The notes beneath the pieces are model-generated. The model was not told the DNA's origin and made no database searches. It saw only the letters and a list, made by a program, of their open reading frames with translations. From contig CAZWKU010000002.1 of NCBI GenBank assembly GCA_964634595.1, positions 4,070 through 68,069 of the forward strand: a stretch of DNA of 64,000 nucleotides, in the 5' to 3' direction. Position 1 is the stretch's first letter; each line of letters opens with the position of its first letter. This document shows, piece after piece, positions 4,213 to 62,701 of the stretch. The position numbers and the translations under genes are program-made. Origin of the DNA: an uncultured Candidatus Saccharibacteria bacterium (GTDB lineage: Bacteria > Patescibacteriota > Minisyncoccia > Phycocordibacterales > Phycocordibacteraceae).

Positions 4213-4249
4213 GACGCCACAAGATAAAACTTGCGGCGTCGCTTTTTTC
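4213..4249 (+). terminator. Rho-independent terminator (GACGCCACAAG...CTTGCGGCGTC then TTTTTT)
   Basis: GC stem-loop plus T-run seen in sequence. Confidence 0.45.
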
Positions 4250-4282
4250 AGAGAGACGAATTCAACTGCTTACGCAGACTTC

Positions 4283-6232
4283 TCAGTTCTGTACCAGTGC
4301 AAAGTCAAGTTCTTTTTCGGGGATGCGGGCGGCGATTAACTTTACGCGGATGGGGTCGCCAAGTTGGTACGAGGTTTTGGTGCGACGGCCGATAAGGCGG
4401 TAGTGTTTCTCGTCGTATTCAAAATAATCGTCGCCAATGCCAGCGATGCGAATCATGCCGTCGGCATGCGTCTCGGCGAGCTCTACGTAGAGCCCGCGTT
4501 CGTTAACGCCTGAAATAACCGCATCAAACTCCTCACCTATCCTGCCAGAGAGAAATTCGACCTGCTTCATTTTTACCGAGTCTCGCTCTGCTTCAGCTGC
4601 GCCCACCTCGCGTTCTGAGGCGTGTATTGCGAGTGCTTCGAACTCCTGCATCTCCTGCTCAGTTATCGGGGTCCCGCCCGCATGTGCTTTTACGAGGCGG
4701 TGGATTACGACGTCAGGGTAGCGACGGATAGGAGAGGTGAAGGTGGTATAAAAATCAAACGCGAGCCCAAAGTGACCGATATTTTTTGTTGTGTAGACGG
4801 CCTTTGCCATTGAGCGAAGCGCCGCTGTTTTTATTAGGTACTCTTCAGGTTTGCCCTTGGTTGCGGCCATGAGGCGGTTAAGCTCTGCACCGGTAACTCG
4901 CCCGGCATGCGTTTTGAGTTCGTAGCCGAGGACGCGCAAAAACTGGGCAAGATTCTCGATGCGGTCGGCATCTGGCGCATCATGGACACGATATAGCGAT
5001 GCAAAATGCGGCCCCCCGTTATTGGTGAGCTTTGCCAGGTGTTCGGCAACCGATTGGTTTGCGAGGAGCATGAAGTCTTCAATCAAGAGGTTGGTGTCCC
5101 TACGCTCTCTGAGGTGCACCGCGATCGGCTTACCCTCGGCATTGAGCTCGACTTTCACTTCGACCGTGTCAAACTCGATTGTCCCCTTGGCGACGCGCCG
5201 TACGCGCATCTTTTGTGCCAGTGTGCGTAGTATCGCAAGCTCTTCGTGCATAGTGCCGGTACCGGCATCGAGCACTCCCTGCGCCTCTTCGTAGGTAAAA
5301 CGTTTGGCCGAGTGGATGATGGTTTCGCCAAACCATGTACGGAGCACACGACCTTCGATATCGAGGGTGAACACAGCCGATACTGAGAGACGGTCTTCAT
5401 TAGGCACCAGCGAACAGAGATTGTTTGAGAGCACTTCGGGGAGCATGGGGATGGTGCGGTCGACAAGGTAGACCGAAGTTGCGCGCTCACGGCCCTCGCG
5501 ATCAAAAGCTGTCCCCGGTTGTACGAAAAAAGAGACATCGGCAATGTGCACACCTACCTCAATGTTCCCATCTTCGAGTTTTTGTACCGAGAGTGCGTCG
5601 TCAAAGTCTTTTGCGTCAAAGGGGTCGATGGTGCAGGTGGGTACTTTTCTAAAATCACGTCGTGTACCGCGTACTGTTTCTTGTTGAATCATCCTCTTGC
5701 CATCTATCTCGAGTTTCTCAGCTTCGCTTGTTACCTCGGGCGGGAAGGTGGGGCTAAAGCCCTGTCCGAGCGCGAGAGCGCGCATTTCGGTCTCGTGTAC
5801 CCCTGCGGGGCCGATAACTTCTTCAATGGTACCCAGCGGGTACTCTTTATCGGGGGCCCATGCACCGAGCCGTGCGAGTACTTTGTACCCAAGCGGAGCC
5901 TCGCCTCGGTCGAGGATCACCAAGGGCACGTACATCTTTTTATAATCGGGAGTGAGAAGCGTGAGGCCGTCGGCTTCAATAAGAGTCCCGACAAAGGTCT
6001 CGCGGGCGCGTGAGATTACTTCAACGACCTTGCCCGCCTCGCGTGGGGGCATCTTACCCGTAGGGTCGCGATAGAGTCCTTCCGGGGCTACCTTAACTAT
6101 ATCGCCGTGGAGGGCGTGCCCGGCCCACTCGGCAGGTATCAGGAGATCCTCACTTTCAGTATCGACACTGAAAAATCCCACGCCCTTACGGGTCATGGTA
6201 ATAGGTCCCTCGTATACCCTTGCTTCAGCCAT
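4283..6232 (-). CDS. rnr: Ribonuclease R / exoribonuclease II family (VacB)
   Basis: 649 aa, RNB catalytic domain motifs, C-terminal S1-like region. Confidence 0.85.
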   Translation of the reverse strand: MAEARVYEGPITMTRKGVGFFSVDTESEDLLIPAEWAGHALHGDIVKVAPEGLYRDPTGKMPPREAGKVVEVISRARETFVGTLIEADGLTLLTPDYKKMYVPLVILDRGEAPLGYKVLARLGAWAPDKEYPLGTIEEVIGPAGVHETEMRALALGQGFSPTFPPEVTSEAEKLEIDGKRMIQQETVRGTRRDFRKVPTCTIDPFDAKDFDDALSVQKLEDGNIEVGVHIADVSFFVQPGTAFDREGRERATSVYLVDRTIPMLPEVLSNNLCSLVPNEDRLSVSAVFTLDIEGRVLRTWFGETIIHSAKRFTYEEAQGVLDAGTGTMHEELAILRTLAQKMRVRRVAKGTIEFDTVEVKVELNAEGKPIAVHLRERRDTNLLIEDFMLLANQSVAEHLAKLTNNGGPHFASLYRVHDAPDADRIENLAQFLRVLGYELKTHAGRVTGAELNRLMAATKGKPEEYLIKTAALRSMAKAVYTTKNIGHFGLAFDFYTTFTSPIRRYPDVVIHRLVKAHAGGTPITEQEMQEFEALAIHASEREVGAAEAERDSVKMKQVEFLSGRIGEEFDAVISGVNERGLYVELAETHADGMIRIAGIGDDYFEYDEKHYRLIGRRTKTSYQLGDPIRVKLIAARIPEKELDFALVQN

Positions 6233-25017: not shown

Positions 25018-25400
25018 TTAATAGCCGCCGCGGCCATAGCCGCCACCGCCACCGTATCCGCCACCACCGCCATAGCCACCGCCACCGCGGTCGCCGTATC
25101 CGCCACCACCGTTTTCACGGCGAGGAGGTCGATCGCCCTGTGGGCGAGCAAAGGGACCGAGAGCGTGCGCCCATCGAGCTCCTTGCCATCCCAACGGTCT
25201 ATTGCCGCTTGAGCCTCTTCAGCAGAGCCCATCTCGACAAAGCCAAAACCGCGTGAGCGGCCAGTCATGCGATCGCTGATAATGCTCGCTGACACGACAT
25301 TACCGGCCTCCGAAAAGGCCTTCTTGAGGTCGTCTTCAGTCGAGCGGTAGGGAATACCGCCCACGTAGAGCTTGTTCCCCTGTACGCTTGCTTGATCCAT
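25018..25400 (-). CDS. RRM-type RNA-binding protein with Gly-rich (GGYGG) tail; apparent -1/+2 frameshift near 25150
   Basis: RNP1 RGFGFVEM and RNP2 LYVGGI. Gly-rich tail QGDRPPRRENGGGGYGDRGGGGYGGGGGY...RGGY ends at TAA 25018-25020 but is in another frame, shifted at CCC/TTT homopolymers. Confidence 0.6.
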
Positions 25401-46188: not shown

Positions 46189-47700
46189 TTATGCGCGCAA
46201 CTCCGCGATAAGGGTATCGAGATCTTTGTGGCGCTCTACCACCGTTTCGTGCTGGAGTACCCAAAAGAGTTTTTGTTTGAGTGCGTCGATGAACTCATGA
46301 TCGTGGGTGACGAGCAGCAAGGTGCTTTTAGAGGTATTACAGGCGTTTAAAAGAATCTCCCAGGTCACTTCATCGAGGTGGTTGGTTGGCTCGTCGAGAA
46401 TCAAAACATCGGGCTTGCCGCCAAATACGAGAGCAAAGCGAAGGCGCATGCGCTGTCCGCCCGAGAGGCTCCCGAGTGGGGTCTCCATGGTGTCAGTGTC
46501 GAACTTCATCGCCCCAAGCGCAGCACGTCCCGCTTCGTCGGTGAGTGAGATCTCGCTCGTGACTACTTCAAGAGGGGTGCGGGATCCGTCAAACTCTGTG
46601 TGCTGGTCGAAGTACGCAATTTTCAGTTTTTCAGCCCAGGTGATCGTACCTGTTTTGAGGGGGAGCTTGCCGAGGAGACATTTAAGAAAGGTTGACTTGC
46701 CTGAGCCATTGCGCCCCAAAAGTACGATGTGGCTCCCGGTACGCATTTCAAGATTTACGTTATGAAAGGCGCTCTTTTTGCTACCCCCATATGCAAACGA
46801 AGTATCAAGTATGCGGCACAAGAGTTTCCCAGAGTGGAGCGCCGAGTCGCTTTGGCGAAGCGATATTTTGGTGCGCGTATCTTCAGCGCGGCCCGACTCT
46901 TTGTGCTTCGCTTTGAGCCCCTCGAGCTCGGCTTTAAACTTATGGTACGTTGCGGTTTCTTTACCGCGAAATGCTTTTTGCCCCATAATAACCACGGCCT
47001 CGCGCAGCTGTTTGATTCGCTTCGTCTCGGTGTCAAAGGCTCGCTGCAGGCCCTCAATACGGCTCAAGCGGTGTTCTATATACTCGTCATACCCACCATG
47101 CGAAAGGTGCGCCTGACCCTGCGCGATCTCGATAACTTTTTCAGCAAGGGAGTCAATCATAAGCCGGTCGTGTGAGATGAAAAGGACGCCCCCGCGATAC
47201 TCTTGTAATAGCGCAATAAGCTCAAGTCGGCTCACAATATCGAGGTGGTTTTCGGGCTCATCAAGCAGAAGAAAGTCGGGTTGTACCGCGATGCCGCATG
47301 AAAGCGCAAGGATTTTTTGCTGACCGCCTGAAAGTAGGTGACACTCTTTGCTCGCGTGTTTTTCAAGGTTAAAACCGAGCTCTTTACCAAGCGCGTAGAC
47401 CCTTTTCGCAAGAGTCACACCGGCGTTTTGGGCGACATACTGAGCGACCGTGGTGCCAGTGTCACTTACTACAAATTCTTGCGGCACATACAAGGTGCGG
47501 ATATGGCCACTCTTTTCGATCGACCCCCTGTTTGGTTCGATAACCCCAGCAATTATTTTGAGCAGGGTAGACTTGCCTGAGCCGTTGTCGCCCACGATGC
47601 ACACTTTCTCATTCTCGGCGCATTTCAAGGTCACCGCCTCAAGGAGCGGTTTTTCAGTAAACGAGTGGCCGATGTTTTTAAGCGAAATCGTTTTTGCCAT
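46189..47700 (-). CDS. ABC-F family ATPase (two tandem ABC domains, no TMD)
   Basis: Walker A GDNGSGKST and GRNGSGKST; two LSGGQ signatures. Confidence 0.85.
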   Translation of the reverse strand: MAKTISLKNIGHSFTEKPLLEAVTLKCAENEKVCIVGDNGSGKSTLLKIIAGVIEPNRGSIEKSGHIRTLYVPQEFVVSDTGTTVAQYVAQNAGVTLAKRVYALGKELGFNLEKHASKECHLLSGGQQKILALSCGIAVQPDFLLLDEPENHLDIVSRLELIALLQEYRGGVLFISHDRLMIDSLAEKVIEIAQGQAHLSHGGYDEYIEHRLSRIEGLQRAFDTETKRIKQLREAVVIMGQKAFRGKETATYHKFKAELEGLKAKHKESGRAEDTRTKISLRQSDSALHSGKLLCRILDTSFAYGGSKKSAFHNVNLEMRTGSHIVLLGRNGSGKSTFLKCLLGKLPLKTGTITWAEKLKIAYFDQHTEFDGSRTPLEVVTSEISLTDEAGRAALGAMKFDTDTMETPLGSLSGGQRMRLRFALVFGGKPDVLILDEPTNHLDEVTWEILLNACNTSKSTLLLVTHDHEFIDALKQKLFWVLQHETVVERHKDLDTLIAELRA

Positions 47701-47801
47701 TTAGTATGAAGAGCCTAGCAAATAACACGTTCTTTTACTAACGAGCAGACCTTAGGTTCGAAGCTCCTGACGCGACTGTCCCCAGTGTCCCCACGGTCAC
47801 C

Positions 47802-50496: not shown

Positions 50497-50583
50497 GCCA
50501 GGAGGAAATGGGGACAGTCACGATTTAAGCTAAGCTGCCAGGAGGAAATGGGAGGAAATGGGGACAGTCACGATTTAAGCTAA
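50497..50583 (+). repeat. Tandem duplication (~40 bp unit) of the RAYT element left end (GCCAGGAGGAAATGGGGACAGTCACGATTTAAGCTAA x2)
   Basis: Direct comparison in sequence. Confidence 0.65.
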
Positions 50584-51315
50584 AATAACGTTGCATAATA
50601 TATTAATGCCCCGTCTTGCTCGCGTTGATGTCGGAAACGAAATATATCATGTCATTAATCGCGCGAATGGTCGCCTCAAGATCTTTGAATCATCACAGGA
50701 TTATCAACTCTTCGAACAGCTTCTTCTTGATGCTCAAGAACTAACCGACATGCGTATTCTCGCCTATGTCATTATGCCAAACCACTGGCACTTGTTGTTG
50801 TGGCCTATGCATGATGGCGATCTCGCACAATTCATGCATCGTCTCTCTAACACCCACACCAGGCGTATGCATACTGCTACCGGCACTATTGGGAATGGGC
50901 ACTTATACCAAGGTCGATACAAATCTTTTCTGGTTGATTCAAACAACTACCTTCTTACGATTATCAAATACATTGAACGCAATCCAGTGCGTGCCAGACT
51001 CTCCAATGCATGTGAAGAATGGCAATGGGGAAGTGCTTGGAGGCGGTCGCAGGGAACCTCAAAGCAAAAGAAACTTATACACCCCTCACCTGAACCGCTA
51101 CCACACCCGTACCTTAAGTGGATAAATACCGCCGAAAAGCCCAATGACCTCTCCATCATACGCGCCTCCGTTAACAAGAACATTCCTTTTGGCAGAGATT
51201 CGTGGGTTGACACAATGATATCCACCTATCACCTAGAGACAACGAAGCGTGGAGTGGGGCGGCCCAGAAAGAATCAGAACACACATTCATCAAAAGAATC
51301 GTGACTGTCCCCATT
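50558..51315 (+). mobile_element. RAYT/IS200-like (HuH Y1 transposase) element copy 1, 758 bp, 19-bp terminal inverted repeats AATGGGGACAGTCACGATT
   Basis: TIRs at 50558-50576 and 51297-51315; near-identical copy at 57578-58336. Confidence 0.75.
50591..51304 (+). CDS. REP-associated tyrosine transposase-like HuH (Y1) transposase
   Basis: HuH motif NHWHLLLW, catalytic Tyr region YQGRYKS, YIERNPVRARL. Confidence 0.8.
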   Translation: MHNILMPRLARVDVGNEIYHVINRANGRLKIFESSQDYQLFEQLLLDAQELTDMRILAYVIMPNHWHLLLWPMHDGDLAQFMHRLSNTHTRRMHTATGTIGNGHLYQGRYKSFLVDSNNYLLTIIKYIERNPVRARLSNACEEWQWGSAWRRSQGTSKQKKLIHPSPEPLPHPYLKWINTAEKPNDLSIIRASVNKNIPFGRDSWVDTMISTYHLETTKRGVGRPRKNQNTHSSKES

Positions 51316-51770
51316 TGTTCCCCCGTATTCGCCCTCCAACACCCGCATGGCTGAAGGCCAAGGGTGGGGGTGAAATAGCGCTGCTCCTGGACTGCACGGA
51401 TAGATGAGGTGCAAGTTCAGTCGGTAACCAGTCCACGGACGTCACAAACGCTCAACGAAAGGTGGATGGTAATTAATAAAAACGGTATTCCACCCTTCTT
51501 CATCGGCAAGTAATTTCTTTAACTCACCTTTGGCTTTATAAAGGACGTCGAGCATCTGTATGCCCTCATAGATTGCCACGTGTACCATACCATTATTATA
51601 CTAAAGTGCAAGCATTGCATCGCTGGCGACCTAATTTTCAAGAGGCGAAGCAACTATGAAAATGGAAGTACTCTTGGGGTGCTAGAGAGCGTTCTGAATC
51701 CTGAGCTTTTCGAAGGAGTACCTTTGTATAAAAGAAAGTCCGCCCATCTCCGTGAGGAAAAGGGCGGGAG

Positions 51771-51980
51771 TCATGGGTTTTTCAGGGGTGGGTCGCTACG
51801 TTTTCTCGCAAGTCGTTTTTTTATCCCGCTCAGTGTTTGGGTGCCGAATACTATGTCGATGCCGACAAAGAACAAGAGCCCAAGCCCGGGGGTCCCGGGG
51901 ACGATGCCCCCGATTGCCCCAATGATGATAGCAACGATGCCGATTGGCTTTCGGGCGATCCGCCACAGTCGAGCCCTCAC
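51771..51980 (-). CDS. DUF454/YbaN-like small inner-membrane protein
   Basis: RKPIGIVAIIIGAIGGIVPGTPGLGLLFFVGIDIVF. Confidence 0.5.
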   Translation of the reverse strand: MRARLWRIARKPIGIVAIIIGAIGGIVPGTPGLGLLFFVGIDIVFGTQTLSGIKKRLARKRSDPPLKNP

Positions 51981-52069: not shown

Positions 52070-52226
52070 AACGCGCCTCCGTTAACAAGAACATTCCTTT
52101 TGGCAGAGATTCGTGGGTTGACACAATGATATCCACCTATCACCTAGAGACAACGAAGCGTGGAGTGGGGCGGCCCAGAAAGAATCAGAACACACATTCA
52201 TCAAAAGAATCGTGACTGTCCCCATT
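52070..52226 (+). mobile_element. Solo right-end fragment (157 bp) of the RAYT element including TIR
   Basis: Near-identical to 51160-51315, including 4 bp of flank (GTTC). Confidence 0.65.
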
Positions 52227-52636
52227 TGTTCATGGCACTCTTTGCTCGCGTTTTTCTCAAGATCAAAGCCGAGCTCTTTACCAAGAGCGTAGACCCTCTT
52301 CGCGAGAGTCACGCCAGCGTTTTGGGCGACATACTGAGCGACAGTGGTGTCGGTGCCACCTGTCACAAATTCTTGTGGCACATACAAGGTGCGGATATGG
52401 CCGCTTTTTTCTAGCGACCCACTGTTCGGTTCGATAACCCCAGCAATTATTTTGAGCAGGGTAGATTTGCCCGAACCATTATCGCCCACGATACATACTT
52501 TTTCGTTTTCAGCACATTTCAAAGTTACCGCCTCAAGGAGCGGTTTTTCAGTAAACGAGTGGCCGATGTTTTTTAATGAAATCGTTTTTGTCATTGAGTA
52601 TGAGGAGCCTAGCAAAAAACACGCTCTTTTACTATC
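52227..52636 (-). pseudogene. Diverged partial duplicate of the abcF 5' end (codes ~122 N-terminal aa) fused to the transposon end fragment
   Basis: ~88% nt identity to 47338-47748. MTKTISLKNIGHSFTEKPLLEAVTLKCAENEKVCIVGDNGSGKSTLLKIIAGVIEPN. Confidence 0.65.
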
Positions 52637-52689
52637 AGCTCTCAAAAAGAAAAGCCGCCCGAGAGCGGCTTTTCGTGTGTGGGCGGGAG

Positions 52690-52830
52690 TCACGGGTTTT
52701 TCGAGGGTGGGTCGTTTTGTTTTCTTGCAAATCGCTTCTTTATTGCGCTCATTGTTTGTGTGCCAAACACCATATCGATGCCAATTTGCATTTAGTTTCC
52801 TCCTGTTGCCCCGTGAGAATTACCTTTGTA
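52690..52830 (-). pseudogene. Internally deleted duplicate of the DUF454 gene region
   Basis: Homology to 51763-51800 and 51985-52030 with the coding middle missing. Confidence 0.4.
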
Positions 52831-53942: not shown

Positions 53943-54305
53943 CGTGTTGTATCAGAGACTCGTTCAGTCTCCGCCCCCGCCGCCCCCTCCGGAGTCGCTG
54001 CCGCCCGAATCGTAGCTACCGGAGTCGCTCGGGGAACTGGGCTCATTGTGGTGAGAGCCACGTTCGTGCGAACCGCTGTGCGAAGGTTCGTTGCTCGAAA
54101 GAAGCTGCATCAGAATCATAGTGTTAAGAATACTGCCGTCATCGGAGCAATAGCTTCCGTTCGACTGTTGCACGTATGTACGACCCTGATGGACGACCTT
54201 TTGGGGTCGACTTTTTCTATTTCGATTCACAGAACACCTCTCTGTTTATGGGTGATTACCCCTGAATGAACAGGACGGCAGTATCTTAGCACGCCATACA
54301 CATAT

Positions 54306-54388
54306 TGTCAATATCTAGCCCCGCTGGGTAGAGAACGTTCGAACCTTTGTGTAAAAAGAAAACCGCCCAAACGGACGATCTTCCGTTA
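54306..54388. repeat. Intergenic repeat family member: GTCAATATCTAGCCCCGCTGGGTAGAGAACGTTCGAACCTTTGTGTAAAAAGAAAA plus hairpin
   Basis: Conserved block shared with 56501, 57169, 61251, 61741, 62631. Lies right after the yjjX stop. Confidence 0.6.
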
Positions 54389-57107: not shown

Positions 57108-57168
57108 CATTTGGGCTATTCCCTCATGTTTCCTGTAAATTATGGTAGCACGCATCTAAATATACGTC

Positions 57169-57249
57169 AATACCTAGCTCCGCTGGGTGGAGGATCTTCG
57201 AACTTGTTTGGTGTAAAGAAAAACACCGGGCCCTTTCGGATCCCGGTGG
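57169..57249. repeat. Intergenic repeat family member (AATACCTAGCTCCGCTGGGTGGAGGATCTTCGAACTTGTTTGGTGTAAAGAAAAA plus hairpin CCGGG...CCCGG)
   Basis: Downstream of a short minus-strand ORF (57286-57447, ~54 aa). Confidence 0.55.
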
Positions 57250-57482: not shown

Positions 57483-57553
57483 CAGCTCCGCGGGTAAGTA
57501 GGCTTGCCCGCTGTCGCCTCGTTCAAAAACAAAAAAGCCCGGCCGGCAGAATG
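57483..57553. repeat. Second repeat family (GCTCCGCGGGTAAGTAGGCTTGCCCGCTGTCGCCTCGTTCAAAAACAAAAAAGCCCG) copy 1, abutting RAYT copy 2 left end
   Basis: 58-bp block identical at 62548-62605. Confidence 0.55.
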
Positions 57554-57577
57554 CAGAATGGGGACAGCAGAATGCAG

Positions 57578-58336
57578 AATGGGGACAGTCACGATTTAAA
57601 TCAAAATAACGTTGCATAATATATTAATGCCCCGTCTTGCTCGCGTCGATGTCGGAAACGAAATATACCATGTCATTAATCGCGCGAATGGTCGCCTCAA
57701 AATCTTTGACTCGTCACAGGACTATCAGCTCTTCGAACAACTTCTTCTTGAGGCTCAAGAACTCACTGACATGCGTATTCTCGCCTATGTCATTATGCCA
57801 AATCACTGGCACTTGTTGTTGTGGCCTATGAATGATGGCGATCTCGCACAATTCATGCATCGTCTCTCTAACACCCACACCAGGCGTATGCATACTGCTA
57901 CCGGCACTATTGGGAATGGGCACTTATACCAAGGTCGATACAAATCTTTTCTGGTTGATTCAAACAACTACCTTCTTACGATTATCAAATACATTGAACG
58001 CAATCCAGTGCGTGCCAGACTCTCCAATGCATGTGAAGAATGGCAATGGGGAAGTGCTTGGAGGCGGTCGCAGGGAACCTCAAAGCAAAAGAAACTTATA
58101 CACCCCTCACCTGAACCGCTACCACACCCGTACCTTAAGTGGATAAATACCGCCGAAAAGCCCAATGACCTCTCCATCATACGCGCCTCCGTTAACAAGA
58201 ACATTCCTTTTGGCAGAGATTCGTGGGTTGACACAATGATATCCACCTATCACCTAGAGACAACGAAGCGTGGAGTCGGGCGGCCAAGAAAGAATCAGAA
58301 CACACATTCATCGAAAGAATCGTGACTGTCCCCATT
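57578..58336 (+). mobile_element. RAYT/IS200-like element copy 2 (759 bp) with 19-bp TIRs, tandem-duplicated left-end stub upstream (57549-57577)
   Basis: TIRs 57578-57596 and 58318-58336; ~99% identical to copy 1. Confidence 0.75.
57612..58325 (+). CDS. REP-associated tyrosine transposase-like HuH (Y1) transposase, copy 2
   Basis: 3 aa differences from copy 1 (E33D, D47E, H75N). Confidence 0.8.
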   Translation: MHNILMPRLARVDVGNEIYHVINRANGRLKIFDSSQDYQLFEQLLLEAQELTDMRILAYVIMPNHWHLLLWPMNDGDLAQFMHRLSNTHTRRMHTATGTIGNGHLYQGRYKSFLVDSNNYLLTIIKYIERNPVRARLSNACEEWQWGSAWRRSQGTSKQKKLIHPSPEPLPHPYLKWINTAEKPNDLSIIRASVNKNIPFGRDSWVDTMISTYHLETTKRGVGRPRKNQNTHSSKES

Positions 58337-58433
58337 TACTCACCTATCACCTAGAGACAACGAAGCGTGGAGTCGGGCGGCCAAGAAAGAATCAGAACAC
58401 ACATTCATCGAAAGAATCGTGACTGTCCCCATT
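58337..58433 (+). repeat. 97-bp tandem duplication of the element right end (second TIR at 58415-58433)
   Basis: 58240-58336 repeated exactly. Confidence 0.7.
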
Positions 58434-58883
58434 TACTTCATGCAGGAGCTTTTCCACTTCGTCGTTGGTGATTTTGTTCTTGGTGGCGAGTGCTTGCATT
58501 ATCTTGTCCCGCTTCTTGCGTTTGCGATCTTGGATTGCGACGCGGGCTTTGGTGAGCAAGTCGCGGATAGAGTGAGTTTGGGCGGTTGGTACAGGCACCG
58601 TCAAGGACGGCGGCAGGATCGGCTCAGCCTCAGGAGGCAACGGCTCATTTGGCGGTATTTGAGCCGTTTGGGTTGTGGATTGAGCGACCTGAGTTTCTTG
58701 ACGGTCATCCGTCTTAGAAACTGGAAGTGGTCCTTGTGACCCCGTTGCGGGTGTTTGAGGTGCTTCTGTGGGCGCGGGAGGAGTTTCAGGAGGCGTAACT
58801 GGCTCTGCGACAAGAGCGGGAGCTTCAACGGCAGGGCTCGGCGATTCTGGTGCTGGTTGCGGGGTGCTCTCTTCTGGGGGCAT
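58392..58883 (-). CDS. Proline-rich hypothetical protein whose last 14 codons and stop lie in the duplicated transposon end
   Basis: PxxP-rich N-terminus. C-terminal residues NGDSHDSFDECVF are the antisense of the IS right end. Confidence 0.35.
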   Translation of the reverse strand: MPPEESTPQPAPESPSPAVEAPALVAEPVTPPETPPAPTEAPQTPATGSQGPLPVSKTDDRQETQVAQSTTQTAQIPPNEPLPPEAEPILPPSLTVPVPTAQTHSIRDLLTKARVAIQDRKRKKRDKIMQALATKNKITNDEVEKLLHEVNGDSHDSFDECVF

Positions 58884-60912: not shown

Positions 60913-60947
60913 GAACTGCGAATAGTATGGCGCTTCTACTGACGCAG

Positions 60948-61038
60948 AATGGGGACAGTCACGATTTAAATCAAAATAACGTTGCATAATATATCAGTGC
61001 CCCGTCTTGATCGCGTCGATGTCGGAAACGAAATATAT
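60948..61038 (+). mobile_element. Left-end remnant (~90 bp, with TIR) of a third RAYT element; rest deleted
   Basis: GCAGAATGGGGACAGTCACGATTTAAATCAAAATAACGTTGCATAATATAT...GTCGGAAACGAAATATAT then divergence. Confidence 0.6.
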
Positions 61039-61250: not shown

Positions 61251-61340
61251 GCTCCGCTGGGTAGAAAATGTTCGAACCTTTGTATAAAAGAAAACCGCCT
61301 CGCCAGGAGAGCGACGAGGTCGGTCTCTTGAGCGAGGCGG
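61251..61340. repeat. Intergenic repeat family member (GCTCCGCTGGGTAGAAAATGTTCGAACCTTTGTATAAAAGAAAA plus long hairpin)
   Basis: Preceded by a nested hairpin 61208-61250 (GCACAGAAAAAGCGCCTTTCGGCGCCTCTTCTTTTTCTGTGC). Confidence 0.55.
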
Positions 61341-61676: not shown

Positions 61677-61740
61677 TTTGTTAGCGTCCTTGGCGCTGGT
61701 TGGAACATTCGTTATTATCTAAGCACAATATAGAAACGGT

Positions 61741-61828
61741 GTCAATACCTAGCTCCGCTGGGTAGAGAACGTTCGAACCTGTATATAAAAGAAAAACCGC
61801 CCGGAGCGCGGCGGAGACACTCCGGGCG
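61741..61828. repeat. Intergenic repeat family member (GTCAATACCTAGCTCCGCTGGGTAGAGAACGTTCGAACCTGTATATAAAAGAAAAA plus hairpin CGCCCGGAG...CTCCGGGCG)
   Basis: Best-preserved copy; follows the stop of 61839..62465. Confidence 0.6.
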
Positions 61829-62547: not shown

Positions 62548-62620
62548 GGCTCCGCGGGTAAGTAGGCTTGCCCGCTGTCGCCTCGTTCAAAAACAAAAAA
62601 GCCCGATGAGGGCTCTTTTG
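62548..62620. repeat. Second repeat family copy 2, followed by terminator hairpin GCCCGATGAGGGC plus T-run
   Basis: Identical 58-bp block to 57483-57540. Confidence 0.55.
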
Positions 62621-62630
62621 TTTTATTCTC

Positions 62631-62701
62631 TCGGCTCCGCTGGGTAGAGAACGTTCGAACCTGTTTATAAAAAGAAAAGCCACCCAATAAGAGCGGGTGG
62701 C
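62631..62701. repeat. Intergenic repeat family member (GGCTCCGCTGGGTAGAGAACGTTCGAACCTGTTTATAAAAAGAAAA plus hairpin GCCACCC...GGGTGGC)
   Basis: Follows the stop of 62722..63273. Confidence 0.6.

Follow-up and report, generated by a model that had tools for sequence, protein, structure and literature searches.

With a probability of roughly 0.6, the locus contains an autonomous TIRtron, present as two copies and as two further broken ends. The element is an insertion element of ~767 bp whose sole gene encodes TIRYT, a RAYT-like Y1 HUH single-strand DNA transposase. Its identification as a TIRtron is very likely. A Y1 gene between inverted repeats is an already named kind of element and not a new one, TIRtron and TIRYT having been named in 2013 for a TIR-associated tyrosine transposase gene located between TIRs with the motif GGGGWSAS (Di Nocera et al., PMC3733652). 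New here are the conservation of the arms throughout the family, the covariation of their palindromic halves, the family-wide geometry of the stuttered ends, and a 97-bp duplication that is polymorphic between sibling samples. TIRYT (RAYT group 1, TnpA_Y1 subclass 2.1) forms the largest RAYT-like group; the literature on it, within the scope searched, is computational only, and movement or a cut site is shown in none of it.

Organization of the locus

The 19-mer AATGGGGACAGTCACGATT occurs eight times in the window (the whole 64-kb stretch of DNA that was analysed), where 0.01 occurrences are expected and 0 of 100 shuffles reached eight. The sites, at 50507(+), 50557(+), 51297(-), 52208(-), 57578(+), 58318(-), 58415(-) and 60948(+), all lie between 50.5 and 61 kb, and every one of them is situated at the end of an element or of a broken element. 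All pieces described in the original prediction, i.e. the repeats, both copies, the solo ends and the duplicated ends, were found again; the left-end duplications, the copy 2 right-end duplicate (exact over 97 bp, as described) and the solo ends were present as claimed, but their spans had to be redrawn (Table 1). Perfect inverted arms of 19-20 nt bound both copies. The boundary of copy 1 was drawn from the pre-core nucleotides common to the solo right end and from the start positions of the stutter units; with the boundaries moved out past the arms, the copies measure ~767 bp rather than 758-759 bp.

Table 1. Features of the TIRtron locus (window positions)
Feature	Position	Strand	Remarks
TIRtron copy 1	50553..51320	+	from 7 nt 5' of GGGG (left) to 8 nt past CCCC (right)
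Copy 1 left terminal arm, AATGGGGACAGTCACGATT	50557..50575	+	imperfect palindrome, core GGGGACAG
Copy 1 right terminal arm, AATGGGGACAGTCACGATT	51297..51315	-	exact match to the 19-mer
Copy 1 TIRYT gene, 232 aa	50606..51304	+	stop codon inside the right arm
TIRtron copy 2	57574..58340	+	arms 57578-57596 (+) and 58318-58336 (-); CDS 57627-58325
Copy 1 left-end stutter	50497..50552	+	outer full arm and partial arm copy
Copy 2 left-end stutter	57546..57573	+	GCAGAAT, then GCAGAATGGGGACA, then GCAGAAT
Copy 2 right-end exact 97-nt tandem duplicate	58341..58437	+	copies 58244-58340
Solo right-end fragment, 161 nt	52071..52231	+	100% identical to 51160-51320
Solo left-end fragment	60944..61038	+	arm, promoter-like region, first 11 codons
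Putative old, degenerate stuttered arm, GGGGACACTGGGGACAGTCGCG	47768..47800	-	low confidence

Copies 1 and 2 differ at 19 of 760 positions and are 97.5% identical, not ~99% as first stated. Sixteen of the 19 differences fall within the first 254 nt, nucleotides 255-699 being identical, and the differences in the coding sequence comprise 13 synonymous and 3 non-synonymous changes. The flanks of the copies are unrelated, and at each of the four ends the match between the copies stops no more than 7-8 nt from GGGG. The 7-nt pre-core is unlike in copies 1 and 2, which would not be expected of a sequence that merely moves along with the element. The copies share one orientation and are separated by 7 kb. 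Other duplicated segments in the region are an ABC-F paralogue (87%), a 102-nt pair (82%) and an exact 57-nt repeat.

The solo right end adjoins a truncated ABC-F paralogue and matches copy 1 also in the 5 nt beyond the 19-mer. The flanking GTTC, originally offered as a clue to the target site, is seen twice because this identity runs 5 nt past the 19-mer, and it was rejected as a target site since the solo right end is an exact copy of the end of copy 1. The solo left end resembles copy 2, the 7-nt pre-core GCAGAAT before GGGG being common to both. A target duplication of 2-3 nt was also rejected: the AAT/ATT beside the core covaries with the inner arm and is therefore part of the element. 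Scans of the window for tRNA genes and Rfam families detected no RNA gene, and a tRNA-targeting or RNA-guided element was rejected on this ground. The putative remnant at 47768-47800 is the only arm-like sequence in the window located away from the elements and their broken ends.

The transposase

The protein belongs to the Y1 HUH enzymes and, among these, to the RAYT-like class. Its reading frame starts with the ATG at 50606 in copy 1 and 57627 in copy 2; every homologue begins at MPRLARVD, and the ORF therefore has 232 aa instead of the 237 aa previously counted from an upstream TTG. Pfam Y1_Tnp is matched with an E-value of 3.5e-16 and 59.9 bits (cut-off 23). The HUH motif is H60-W-H62 (NHWH), and the catalytic tyrosine, Y122, lies in YIERNP, the class-2 form (Y---NP) of the Y motif; the HUH histidines and Y122 show no or almost no variation across 23 relatives, and Y122, N126 and E124/R125 are recorded as invariant. 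At the position of the W motif TIRYT carries YQ, within L-Y-Q-G-R-Y. The best PDB match by sequence is 4er8, the TnpA_REP of E. coli, and the AlphaFold2 model, with block-mean pLDDT values of mostly 70-83 in the core, retrieves 4er8_A as the top Foldseek match (E 2e-7), followed by the TnpA structures of ISDra2 and IS608. The earlier assignment to the IS200/RAYT-like HuH (Y1) transposases is borne out by these matches. The conserved C-terminal tail of ~95 aa, ending in GRPRK or GRPKK, is modelled with a pLDDT below 50; no HTH or other domain was found in it, Pfam (E<=0.01) giving Y1_Tnp alone and NCBIfam nothing beyond the Y1 core. An exact look-up of the copy 1 protein returned no record, and a literature search for RAYT together with Patescibacteria gave no relevant match.

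With regard to class, the enzyme is RAYT-like but not a RAYT in the strict sense, its score of 72.1 bits against NCBIfam REP_Tyr_transpos (NF047646) lying below the cut-off of 80 and its arms having no GTAG tag. Most TIRYT proteins belong to subclass 2.1 of TnpA_Y1, corresponding to Bertels group 1 (Quentin, Siguier, Chandler and Fichant 2018, PMC6006769). The present protein agrees with this subclass in the form of its Y motif (YIERNP, compared with YIELNP or Y[IV]HLNP), in its length (232 aa; subclass median 238) and in its long C-terminal tail, but departs from it in NHWH, which replaces NHVH or NH[YF]H, in YQ, which replaces W[EQ] or FQ, and in that the HTH-like tail (Bac_DnaA_C, HTH_23 or HTH_28) was not detected in it by Pfam. 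Its HuH and W motifs are near variants of the signatures given for the subclass, without being identical to them. The Y1 HUH fold is also common to IS200/IS605, whose TnpA, however, has ~150 aa and the motifs Y---Q and DH[VI]H.

Terminal arms

The ends of the element are inverted copies of an imperfect palindrome of ~21 nt, AAATGGGG-WCAG-SCACNATTT, the core of which, GGGGACAG, fits the published TIRYT consensus GGGGWSAS. The cores of relatives are mostly GGGGACAG or GGGGTCAG, while the variants GGTGTCAG and GGGGATAA depart from the consensus. TIRs had originally been contrasted with the subterminal hairpins of classical IS200/IS605; they are indeed present, but the contrast does not hold in full, since the arms are themselves imperfect palindromes and thus stand in no conflict with hairpin recognition by HUH enzymes. 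Their interpretation as DDE-type TIRs was rejected, there being no DDE gene and the arms being palindromic.

The ends are conserved across the family, and the two halves of each arm covary. Columns 4 and 18 form the pairs UA (43), AU (16), CG (10) and GC (4); the covariation score of the arm halves is 0.200 compared with 0.122 +/- 0.009 for shuffles, none of 500 shuffles reaching 0.200, although the aligned arms are mutually related and such statistics overstate their independence. With slid partners the score is at most 0.107. The arms of relatives fold with -4.7 to -8.6 kcal/mol (z-scores -2.9 to -4.5); the window's own arms fold weakly alone, one with -1.5 kcal/mol and the other with -0.5 kcal/mol, the latter value being no improvement on shuffles. 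Judged from its sequence, each arm resembles a REP hairpin with covarying halves of an imperfect palindrome, and this locus and its relatives would accordingly make the 'TIRs' of TIRtrons REP-like hairpins; recognition of duplex DNA by a dimer could alternatively produce the same covariation. As in REPtrons, which are built around a RAYT (TnpA_REP) gene, inverted imperfect palindromes, their stems carrying a conserved mismatch, stand on either side of the gene, but the 5' GT[AG]G tag at the foot of the hairpin is missing: the arm foot reads AAAT/GGGG, and GTAG occurs in no arm. Subclass 2.1 has been reported to be without REP-like structures (PMC6006769), from which the clearly palindromic and covarying arms of the present family differ.

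Relatives and mobility

The same inverted arms surround the gene in ~65 of 75 related Patescibacteria loci, and the TIRs therefore belong to the element; they are not part of an unrelated host repeat, nor does the protein group with non-transposase HuH families, the two outcomes that would have spoken against the original prediction. The arms of these loci are found 32-60 nt upstream and 9-60 nt downstream of the gene; the left core is located 31-55 nt before the ATG in most loci and the right core 9-60 nt after the stop codon, in two subtypes. A RAYT-like Y1 gene between inverted repeats at an approximately fixed distance from the CDS, with a core fitting GGGGWSAS, is the arrangement described for TIRtrons; unlike those, the present family has Patescibacteria as hosts. 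Relatives with full-length homology and 29-32% identity are found on proteobacterial plasmids of Pseudomonas and Iodobacter as TIR-flanked 'transposase' genes, with flanking arms that have GGGGACAG or GGGGTCAG cores, and one P. aeruginosa plasmid has three places matching the protein.

The family comprises 340 clusters at 50% identity (E<=1e-30) and >2,000 close homologues, is spread over hundreds of Patescibacteria genomes, and is represented by several diverged copies per assembly. Many homologues were assembled on contigs of 0.8-2 kb, the outcome to be expected when repeats collapse. Metagenomes frequently contain solo ends and MITE-like arm doublets; clusters of ends from different subfamilies are present as well, and of the AAT-prefixed arm sites in metagenomes whose inner flank is at least 1 kb long, ~70% have no gene. 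The family shows a multi-copy, IS-like behaviour with solo-end and MITE-like derivatives. Solo palindromes and doublets are also known from the REPtron/RAYT system, where the doublets find their counterpart in REPINs; in that system, the palindrome is scattered between genes in many copies while its gene is single and does not move as a unit. The duplication of gene and ends as a unit and the confinement of the window's eight exact arms to elements and broken ends differ from this, whereas the many metagenome arm sites without a gene come closer to it. In the TIRYT/subclass 2.1 group near-identical duplicates occur occasionally (PMC3733652, PMC6006769).

It is probable that the element is mobile as a unit. 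The opposing explanation is that of a domesticated, immobile RAYT-like gene in a REPtron-like setting, its copies and fragments having arisen by segmental duplication and rearrangement in a variable region. It could draw on the other duplicated segments listed above, on the common orientation and 7-kb spacing of the copies, on the usually low copy number and purifying selection of RAYT-class genes, and on the failure to find an empty site in sibling samples. Such an origin is nevertheless unlikely: at four of four ends the copies cease to match no more than 7-8 nt from the arms and the flanks are unrelated, homologues occur in hundreds of Patescibacteria genomes, in many cases on very short contigs and with several diverged copies per assembly, and solo ends, MITE-like doublets, mixed-subfamily end clusters and the threefold match on the P. 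aeruginosa plasmid exist. Empty-site alleles were sought via the exact neighbour proteins of both copies, and this search returned only filled sites with the same stutters. Abutted RE-LE circle junctions were found in none of the related loci searched, the sole relevant match, two ends lying 40 nt from each other in L165, not being counted as such.

Stuttered ends

The stuttering of the ends, considered unusual in the original prediction, is the norm in this family and not an oddity of one locus. Partial arm copies lie outside 55 of 141 ends (39%), compared with 1 of 357 random control anchors. They are found at both ends and only outside the complete arm, which is the innermost one in nearly all cases. 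At the left end of copy 1, a full arm with 11 inner nt at 50501-50533 is repeated at 50551-50583; the outer copy is followed by GCT and then by the partial copy GCCAGGAGGAAATGG (50537-50551). Neither PMC3733652 nor PMC6006769 mentions such arrays, which are here a feature of the whole family.

Among 61 clean tandem duplications, with periods of 6 to 97 nt, the start of the unit peaks 7 nt 5' of GGGG (-7 in 21 cases, -6 in 9, -5 in 7 and -8 in 6), the units of copy 1 beginning at -9 and -13 instead. The 97-nt unit of copy 2, read on the arm's own strand, begins AGTAAAT/GGGG, i.e. at -7. The odds that the stutters are made by the transposase are about even. Ordinary replication slippage or template switching at the terminal hairpins, with no role for the transposase, is a doubtful but serious competitor: the arms are palindromic, the unit ends are non-uniformly distributed, clustering in the stem's G-run and immediately past the loop, positions at which pausing of a polymerase is equally conceivable, and many pre-cores begin with G or GG and could pair with the G-run. 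Slippage requires annealing, however, and the junction microhomology (0 nt in 29, 1 nt in 21, 2 nt in 7 and 3 nt in 3 of the 61 duplications; none at the clean 97-nt duplication) is by rough estimate at chance level, which therefore counts against it. Moreover, the unit starts fall within a window of ~3 nt while the unit ends are spread over 100 nt, and the units of a single array differ in length, unlike those of an expanding minisatellite.

Alternatively, the partial copies might be functional, as additional iteron-like sites to which the transposase or its C-terminal tail binds, in the way that Tn7 and Mu have several binding sites at their ends and that iterons lie beside rolling-circle origins. 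Their position next to a hairpin by an HUH gene, at both ends in mirror orientation and recurrently across the family, would suit this explanation, which is quite improbable given that only 39% of ends have a partial copy and that 27 of 63 loci are free of them on both sides, that number, length and spacing are irregular with many units cut to a few nucleotides, that the proteobacterial relatives have no partial copies, and that one duplication is polymorphic between sibling samples. This last is the 97-bp duplication at the right end of copy 2, which two sibling samples lack at this site; its junction (CCCCATTTACT joined to CACCTATCACC; in the unduplicated form CCCCATTTACT joined to TCATGCAGG) is also present in L081. 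The duplication could have been collapsed in the sibling contigs by short-read assembly. That repeats and stutters altogether are assembly artefacts of a repeated element in short-read metagenomes, as the breaking of contigs at these elements and the variation of the 97-bp duplication between assemblies might suggest, is very improbable: identical left-end stutters occur in independent assemblies of three or four samples, that of copy 2 being present in the sibling-sample contigs L204 and L205, and the same architecture appears in the assemblies of many projects, judged from the styles of contig names.

Proposed mechanism

With the transposase as their maker, the stutter arrays may tentatively be read as scars left in vivo when the HUH enzyme nicks each end on its own strand, at a fixed position ~7 nt 5' of GGGG, and the nicked DNA is extended and rejoined. 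In single-stranded DNA, an arm would form a hairpin resembling that of REP, with a G.A mismatch that is conserved. This hairpin would be bound by the transposase, which would nick the same strand ~7 nt 5' of GGGG, ~3 nt outside the hairpin foot, and become linked to the 5' phosphate. After the nick, the 3'-OH of the flank would be extended over a variable distance, or a second cut made, and the extended 3' end would be rejoined to the tyrosine-linked 5' end at -7, with the stutters as by-products. The outcome would be a tandem copy that always starts at the nick, has a variable end and always lies outside a complete arm. For TnpA_REP, binding of REP with a requirement for the stem mismatch and cleavage of flanking sites through a 5'-phosphotyrosine have been described, and amplification of BIMEs by nick, primer extension, second cleavage and strand transfer has been proposed (Ton-Hoang et al. 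2012), a model of local amplification which fits the stutters. The arms being inverted, either strand could display one of them as a 'REP' and the other as an 'inverted REP', the manner in which E. coli TnpA_REP handles BIMEs, so that excision and pasting as single-stranded DNA could use either strand.

IS200/IS605 elements are likewise small, carry a single gene and hairpin-forming ends, and make no target duplication; the chemistry is here, too, likely to be single-strand 'peel and paste'. The ends of IS200/IS605 are, however, two different subterminal hairpins on one strand in the same orientation, without TIRs, whereas those of the present element are inverted copies of one palindrome. The termini of parvoviruses such as AAV are inverted, hairpin-forming repeats. 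There the HUH protein Rep cuts at a constant position next to the hairpin, the strand nicked at one terminus being the opposite of that nicked at the other, after which the 3'-OH is extended. This parallel is one of analogy only, the protein family being unrelated (Rep has a helicase domain) and part of a viral replicon, and hairpin-primed replication not being shown here.

The stutter geometry predicts a specific cleavage site and strand. Should the arrays be scars of the HUH enzyme, the TIRYT enzymes of Patescibacteria would be active as nucleases, and TIRtrons would undergo symmetric processing of their two strands, a mode closer to parvoviral terminal resolution or to the way in which TnpA_REP amplifies BIMEs than to the peel-and-paste of IS200/IS605, which uses one strand. 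The position and polarity of cleavage by the TIRYT class could then be read from genome sequence alone. The IS-like TIRtron family is very common in Patescibacteria, and its elements break metagenome assemblies of these reduced genomes. Solo ends place promoter-like sequences beside host genes. A strict sigma-70 scan of the left end flagged no promoter; by eye and by comparison with relatives only, a -10-like TGCATAAT is seen 9 nt before the ATG.

The two copies and their broken ends

In the window, the 19-mer AATGGGGACAGTCACGATT is present in eight copies, where chance would give 0.01, and all of them lie inside 50.5–61 kb (Table). The original prediction, largely right on this locus, is borne out in that this inverted repeat, here called the arm, bounds both elements at both ends, and in that tandemly duplicated ends (extra partial or complete copies outside the complete arm, here called stutter) and solo end fragments are all found. 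Two closely similar copies do exist, but the ~99% identity ascribed to them does not hold, as 19 of 760 positions differ. Sixteen of these lie within the first 254 nt and nt 255–699 are identical, a mosaic pattern suggestive of recombination between the copies. The differences in the coding sequence comprise 13 synonymous and 3 non-synonymous ones, which argues that purifying selection was kept on both transposase genes. The solo right end is a perfect match to 51160–51320, and the solo left end is similar to copy 2; this copy behaviour is evident in the window itself.

Positions of arms, end derivatives and neighbouring repeats (window coordinates unless a fetched locus, L, is named)
Feature	Position or locus	Remark
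Copy 1 arms	50557–50575 (+) and 51297–51315 (−)	19-mer match
Copy 2 arms	57578–57596 (+) and 58318–58336 (−)	19-mer match
Extra left arm ahead of copy 1	50507	19-mer match
Duplicated right arm behind copy 2	58415	19-mer match
Solo right end arm	52208	19-mer match
Solo left end arm	60948	19-mer match
Solo right end	52071–52231	
Solo left end	60944–61038	
GTG[G/T]T[A/C]TAAT block	L036-type ends; 50587–50597 and 51264–51274	
MITE- or REPIN-like doublets	L113/L147 (about 4240–4285), L195, L121 (738–816), L174, L085	two inverted arms 14–120 nt apart
Clusters of ends from different arm subfamilies	L091, L109, L125, L183	
ABC-F-type gene fragment	52233–52693	
Stretch of the gene at 47.3 kb compared with this fragment	47339–47700	
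102-nt pair	51762–51863 and 52681–52782	82% identity
Arm-like sequence	47768–47800 (−)	
57-nt exact repeat	57485–57541 and 62549–62605	
Intergenic module GCTCCGCTGGGTAGAGAACGTTCGAACC..AAAAGAAAACCGCCC	54282–54371, 57141–57230, 61251–61304, 61716–61805, 62634–62687; also 51715, 55549, 56507, 53878	
Periodic repeats	25025–25123	

The ABC-F-type ATPase gene fragment, which shares 87% identity with the gene at 47.3 kb, is cut off exactly at its border with the solo right end, suggesting a deletion or rearrangement associated with the element; the 102-nt pair is found near this fragment. Upstream of the intact ABC-F gene, a degenerate, apparently stuttered, intergenic arm-like sequence (GGGGACACTGGGGACAGTCGCG) may be an older remnant. 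The copy of the 57-nt repeat at 62.6 kb continues into a terminator-like hairpin (AAAAAGCCC-gatga-GGGCTCTTTT); in the copy at 57.5 kb, the match ends in the hairpin loop, 4 nt (GCCG) ahead of the copy 2 left-end stutter, so that copy 2 or a rearrangement may have landed in the loop.

The transposase and its classification

Read from the ATG used by every homologue, the transposase has 232 residues, not the 237 originally given. It matches Pfam Y1_Tnp and scores slightly under the cut-off of the NCBIfam REP-associated tyrosine transposase (72.1 versus 80). The HUH triad H60-W-H62 and Tyr122, located within KYIERNPVRA, are conserved in 23 relatives, as is the C-terminal tail of ~95 residues ending in GRPKK. 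E. coli TnpA_REP (4er8) is the closest solved structure by sequence, and Foldseek with the AlphaFold2 model, confident in the core only, ranked 4er8_A at the top and the ISDra2 and IS608 transposases next. The enzyme is thus a RAYT-like Y1 transposase with an HUH motif, as had been proposed. More than 2,000 close homologues share 63–73% identity, many of them on contigs of 0.8–2 kb, and the few that are named bear labels of Parcubacteria-group or Patescibacteria lineages. The family is a large one, with 340 clusters (50% identity) at E ≤ 1e-30 and 9,254 at E ≤ 1e-10.

RAYT-like genes between inverted repeats have been termed TIRtrons, and their proteins TIRYT, with the common TIR motif GGGGWSAS (Di Nocera et al., 2013; PMC3733652). 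Twenty of 26 TIRYT proteins fall into TnpA_Y1 subclass 2.1 (Bertels group 1), which is characterized by a median of 238 aa, a Y motif YIELNP or Y[IV]HLNP and a C-terminal tail, and for which no REP-like structure was reported (Quentin, Siguier, Chandler and Fichant, 2018; PMC6006769). Group 1 has the largest share of near-identical duplicates among true RAYT groups (Bertels et al., 2017). The element of the window resembles this subclass in its GGGGACAG motif, YIERNP and length of 232 aa; however, its HUH triad reads NHWH, YQ stands in place of the W motif, and no HTH was found by Pfam in the tail. Judged by its sequence, the element is a TIRtron, i.e. of a known kind, so that its TIRs are not novel. 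In the literature searched, TIRYT was mentioned in only two works, and no description was found of the extent of the Patescibacteria clade or its IS-like behaviour, of palindromic, covarying GGGGWSAS arms, of a family-wide stutter with a defined join point, or of a polymorphic stutter such as that in the window.

Ends of related elements

The 80 related loci fetched came from species-representative genomes, almost all of which carry Patescibacteria labels; 75 of the loci had enough flank. An inverted repeat brackets the gene in about 65 of the 75, starting 32–60 nt upstream of the start codon and extending at the right end 9–60 nt beyond the stop codon, with the consensus AATGGGG[A/T]CAG[C/G]CACCATT and variants such as AAAGGTGTCAGGTACCTTT. 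Distant relatives on plasmids of Pseudomonas aeruginosa and Iodobacter (29–32% identity) also have inverted repeats, with GGGGACAG or GGGGTCAG cores. Since most of the related loci and also these distant relatives carry them, the repeats belong to the element and not to a larger host repeat, in agreement with the original view. On the P. aeruginosa plasmid NZ_CP116719.1 (24 kb), three places match the transposase protein; the one copy examined has 32-nt inverted ends (AAAGGGGACAGATTTATTTTCCCTACTCTAAT), the inner part of its left end is repeated upstream in degenerate form, and no stutter of the Patescibacteria type was found at it.

A second conserved block, GTG[G/T]T[A/C]TAAT, which resembles an extended −10 element, lies 20–30 nt inside the arm at both ends. 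At the left end it is situated ~9 nt ahead of the ATG, suggesting that the transposase mRNA is leaderless or near-leaderless. In one right-end subtype, including that of the window, the block faces inward, antisense to the 3′ end of the gene.

Arms as probable hairpins

Alignment of 103 distinct arms demonstrated that the two halves pair at seven positions, outer AAATGGGG with inner CCACCATTT, the conserved ends thus being palindromic. Column pair 4/18 is U-A in 43 arms, A-U in 16, C-G in 10 and G-C in 4, and at column pair 7/15 most arms have a G.A mismatch, with U-A or G-C instead in two subfamilies; an imperfect stem is also required for binding by E. coli TnpA_REP (Ton-Hoang et al.). The covariation score was 0.200 versus 0.122 ± 0.009 for shuffles (0 of 500 reached 0.200) and at most 0.107 for slid partners. 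As single-stranded DNA, the relatives' arms fold well (−4.7 to −8.6 kcal/mol) and the window's own arms weakly (−1.5 and −0.5 kcal/mol). Recognition of a palindromic site in duplex DNA by a dimer would lead to the same covariation. From the pairing pattern, the 'TIRs' look like inverted copies of a REP-like hairpin, which would remove their apparent clash with HUH biology.

Stutter and its possible origin

In many relatives, 1 to 10 partial copies, each consisting of a few flanking nucleotides and the outer half of the arm, are found outside the complete arm, mirrored between the two ends; with few exceptions, no copy lies further inward than the complete arm. A stutter copy of at least 9 nt is present at 55 of 141 ends versus 1 of 357 random anchors, and at least one end is stuttered in 36 of 63 loci, so that the phenomenon, originally considered unusual, is family-wide. 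In 61 clean innermost tandem duplications, numbered 5′ from GGGG, unit starts peak at −7 (21), followed by −6 (9), −5 (7) and −8 (6), with periods of 6–97 nt. Of the junctions, 29 have no microhomology, 21 have 1 nt, 7 have 2 nt and 3 have 3 nt, which by a rough estimate is about chance level.

The window conforms to this pattern. The full left end of copy 2 is preceded by GCAGAAT, GCAGAATGGGGACA and a second GCAGAAT, and its 97-nt right-end unit begins AGTAAAT-GGGG with zero junction microhomology; copy 1 is less regular, its units beginning at −9 and −13. Solo ends and sister copies have exactly 7–8 nt in common beyond GGGG and none further out, an independent line pointing to the same break point as the unit starts. 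In contigs of two sibling samples, the site and the left-end stutter of copy 2 are unchanged and the 97-bp right-end duplication is missing; the duplication junction is present in a third sample. Subject to a possible collapse of the 97-bp repeat by short-read assembly in the sibling contigs, this comparison indicates that stutter formation in the window is recent. The copy 1 left-end stutter is identical in three other assemblies, which speaks against an assembly artefact.

Neither a transposition intermediate nor an empty site was found in the sequences examined, so that both mobility and the nick site are inferred. The arm would fold on single-stranded DNA, where the transposase would bind it and nick the same strand ~7 nt 5′ of GGGG, and would thereby be joined to the 5′ phosphate. 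With inverted arms, each strand would present its two ends differently, one as a 'REP' and one as an 'inverted REP'; as TnpA_REP binds REP and cuts around inverted REP (Ton-Hoang et al.), either strand could be excised and pasted. The 3′-OH of the flank, after variable extension or a second cut, would then be rejoined to the tyrosine-linked 5′ end, giving the stutter as in the amplification model of Ton-Hoang et al. (Figure 7B). Under such nicking, extension and rejoining, units are predicted to start at a fixed 5′ point, to end at a variable 3′ point, to lie beyond the complete arm and to require no microhomology; all four are seen. Hairpin-induced slippage, the main rival, accounts for the clustering of unit ends in stem and loop but leaves the fixed unit starts and the chance-level microhomology unexplained.

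Derivatives without the gene

A metagenome scan for GGGGACAGTCACGATT returned 120 stretches, many with AAT and stutters in front. Of 40 AAT-prefixed sites with an inner flank of 1 kb or more, about 29 lack the Y1 gene, these gene-less sites being solo ends, MITE-like doublets and clusters of ends from different arm subfamilies. Some doublets have mirror-image stutters on both sides. In the clusters, ends of subfamilies GGGGACAGTCAC, GGGGATAAGTAC, GGTGTCAGGTACC and GGGGTCAGCCACC lie within tens of nucleotides of each other, and family members may favour insertion beside existing ends. The mixture of full elements, doublets and singlets is like the picture known for RAYT, REPIN and REP. At one locus (L168, match on the minus strand at 2148), a long, unrelated host ORF follows 46 nt downstream of a solo left end that has the promoter-like block; solo ends of this sort might serve as portable promoters.

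Other repeats in the window

A stretch of 11 kb holds 5–7 copies of the intergenic module. Three of them contain, on the minus strand, TTGACA/TTGACG, 17 nt and then TAAGAT/TTAGAT/TACCAT, and from these motifs the module looks like a promoter behind a conserved upstream block and a terminator-like GGGCGGTTTTCTTTTT. The block bears a loose resemblance to a tRNA D-arm; ARAGORN found no tRNA genes in the window. The overlapping 9–18-nt periodic repeats of CCGCCACCG-type sequence probably represent a minus-strand coding region with a Gly-rich repeat.
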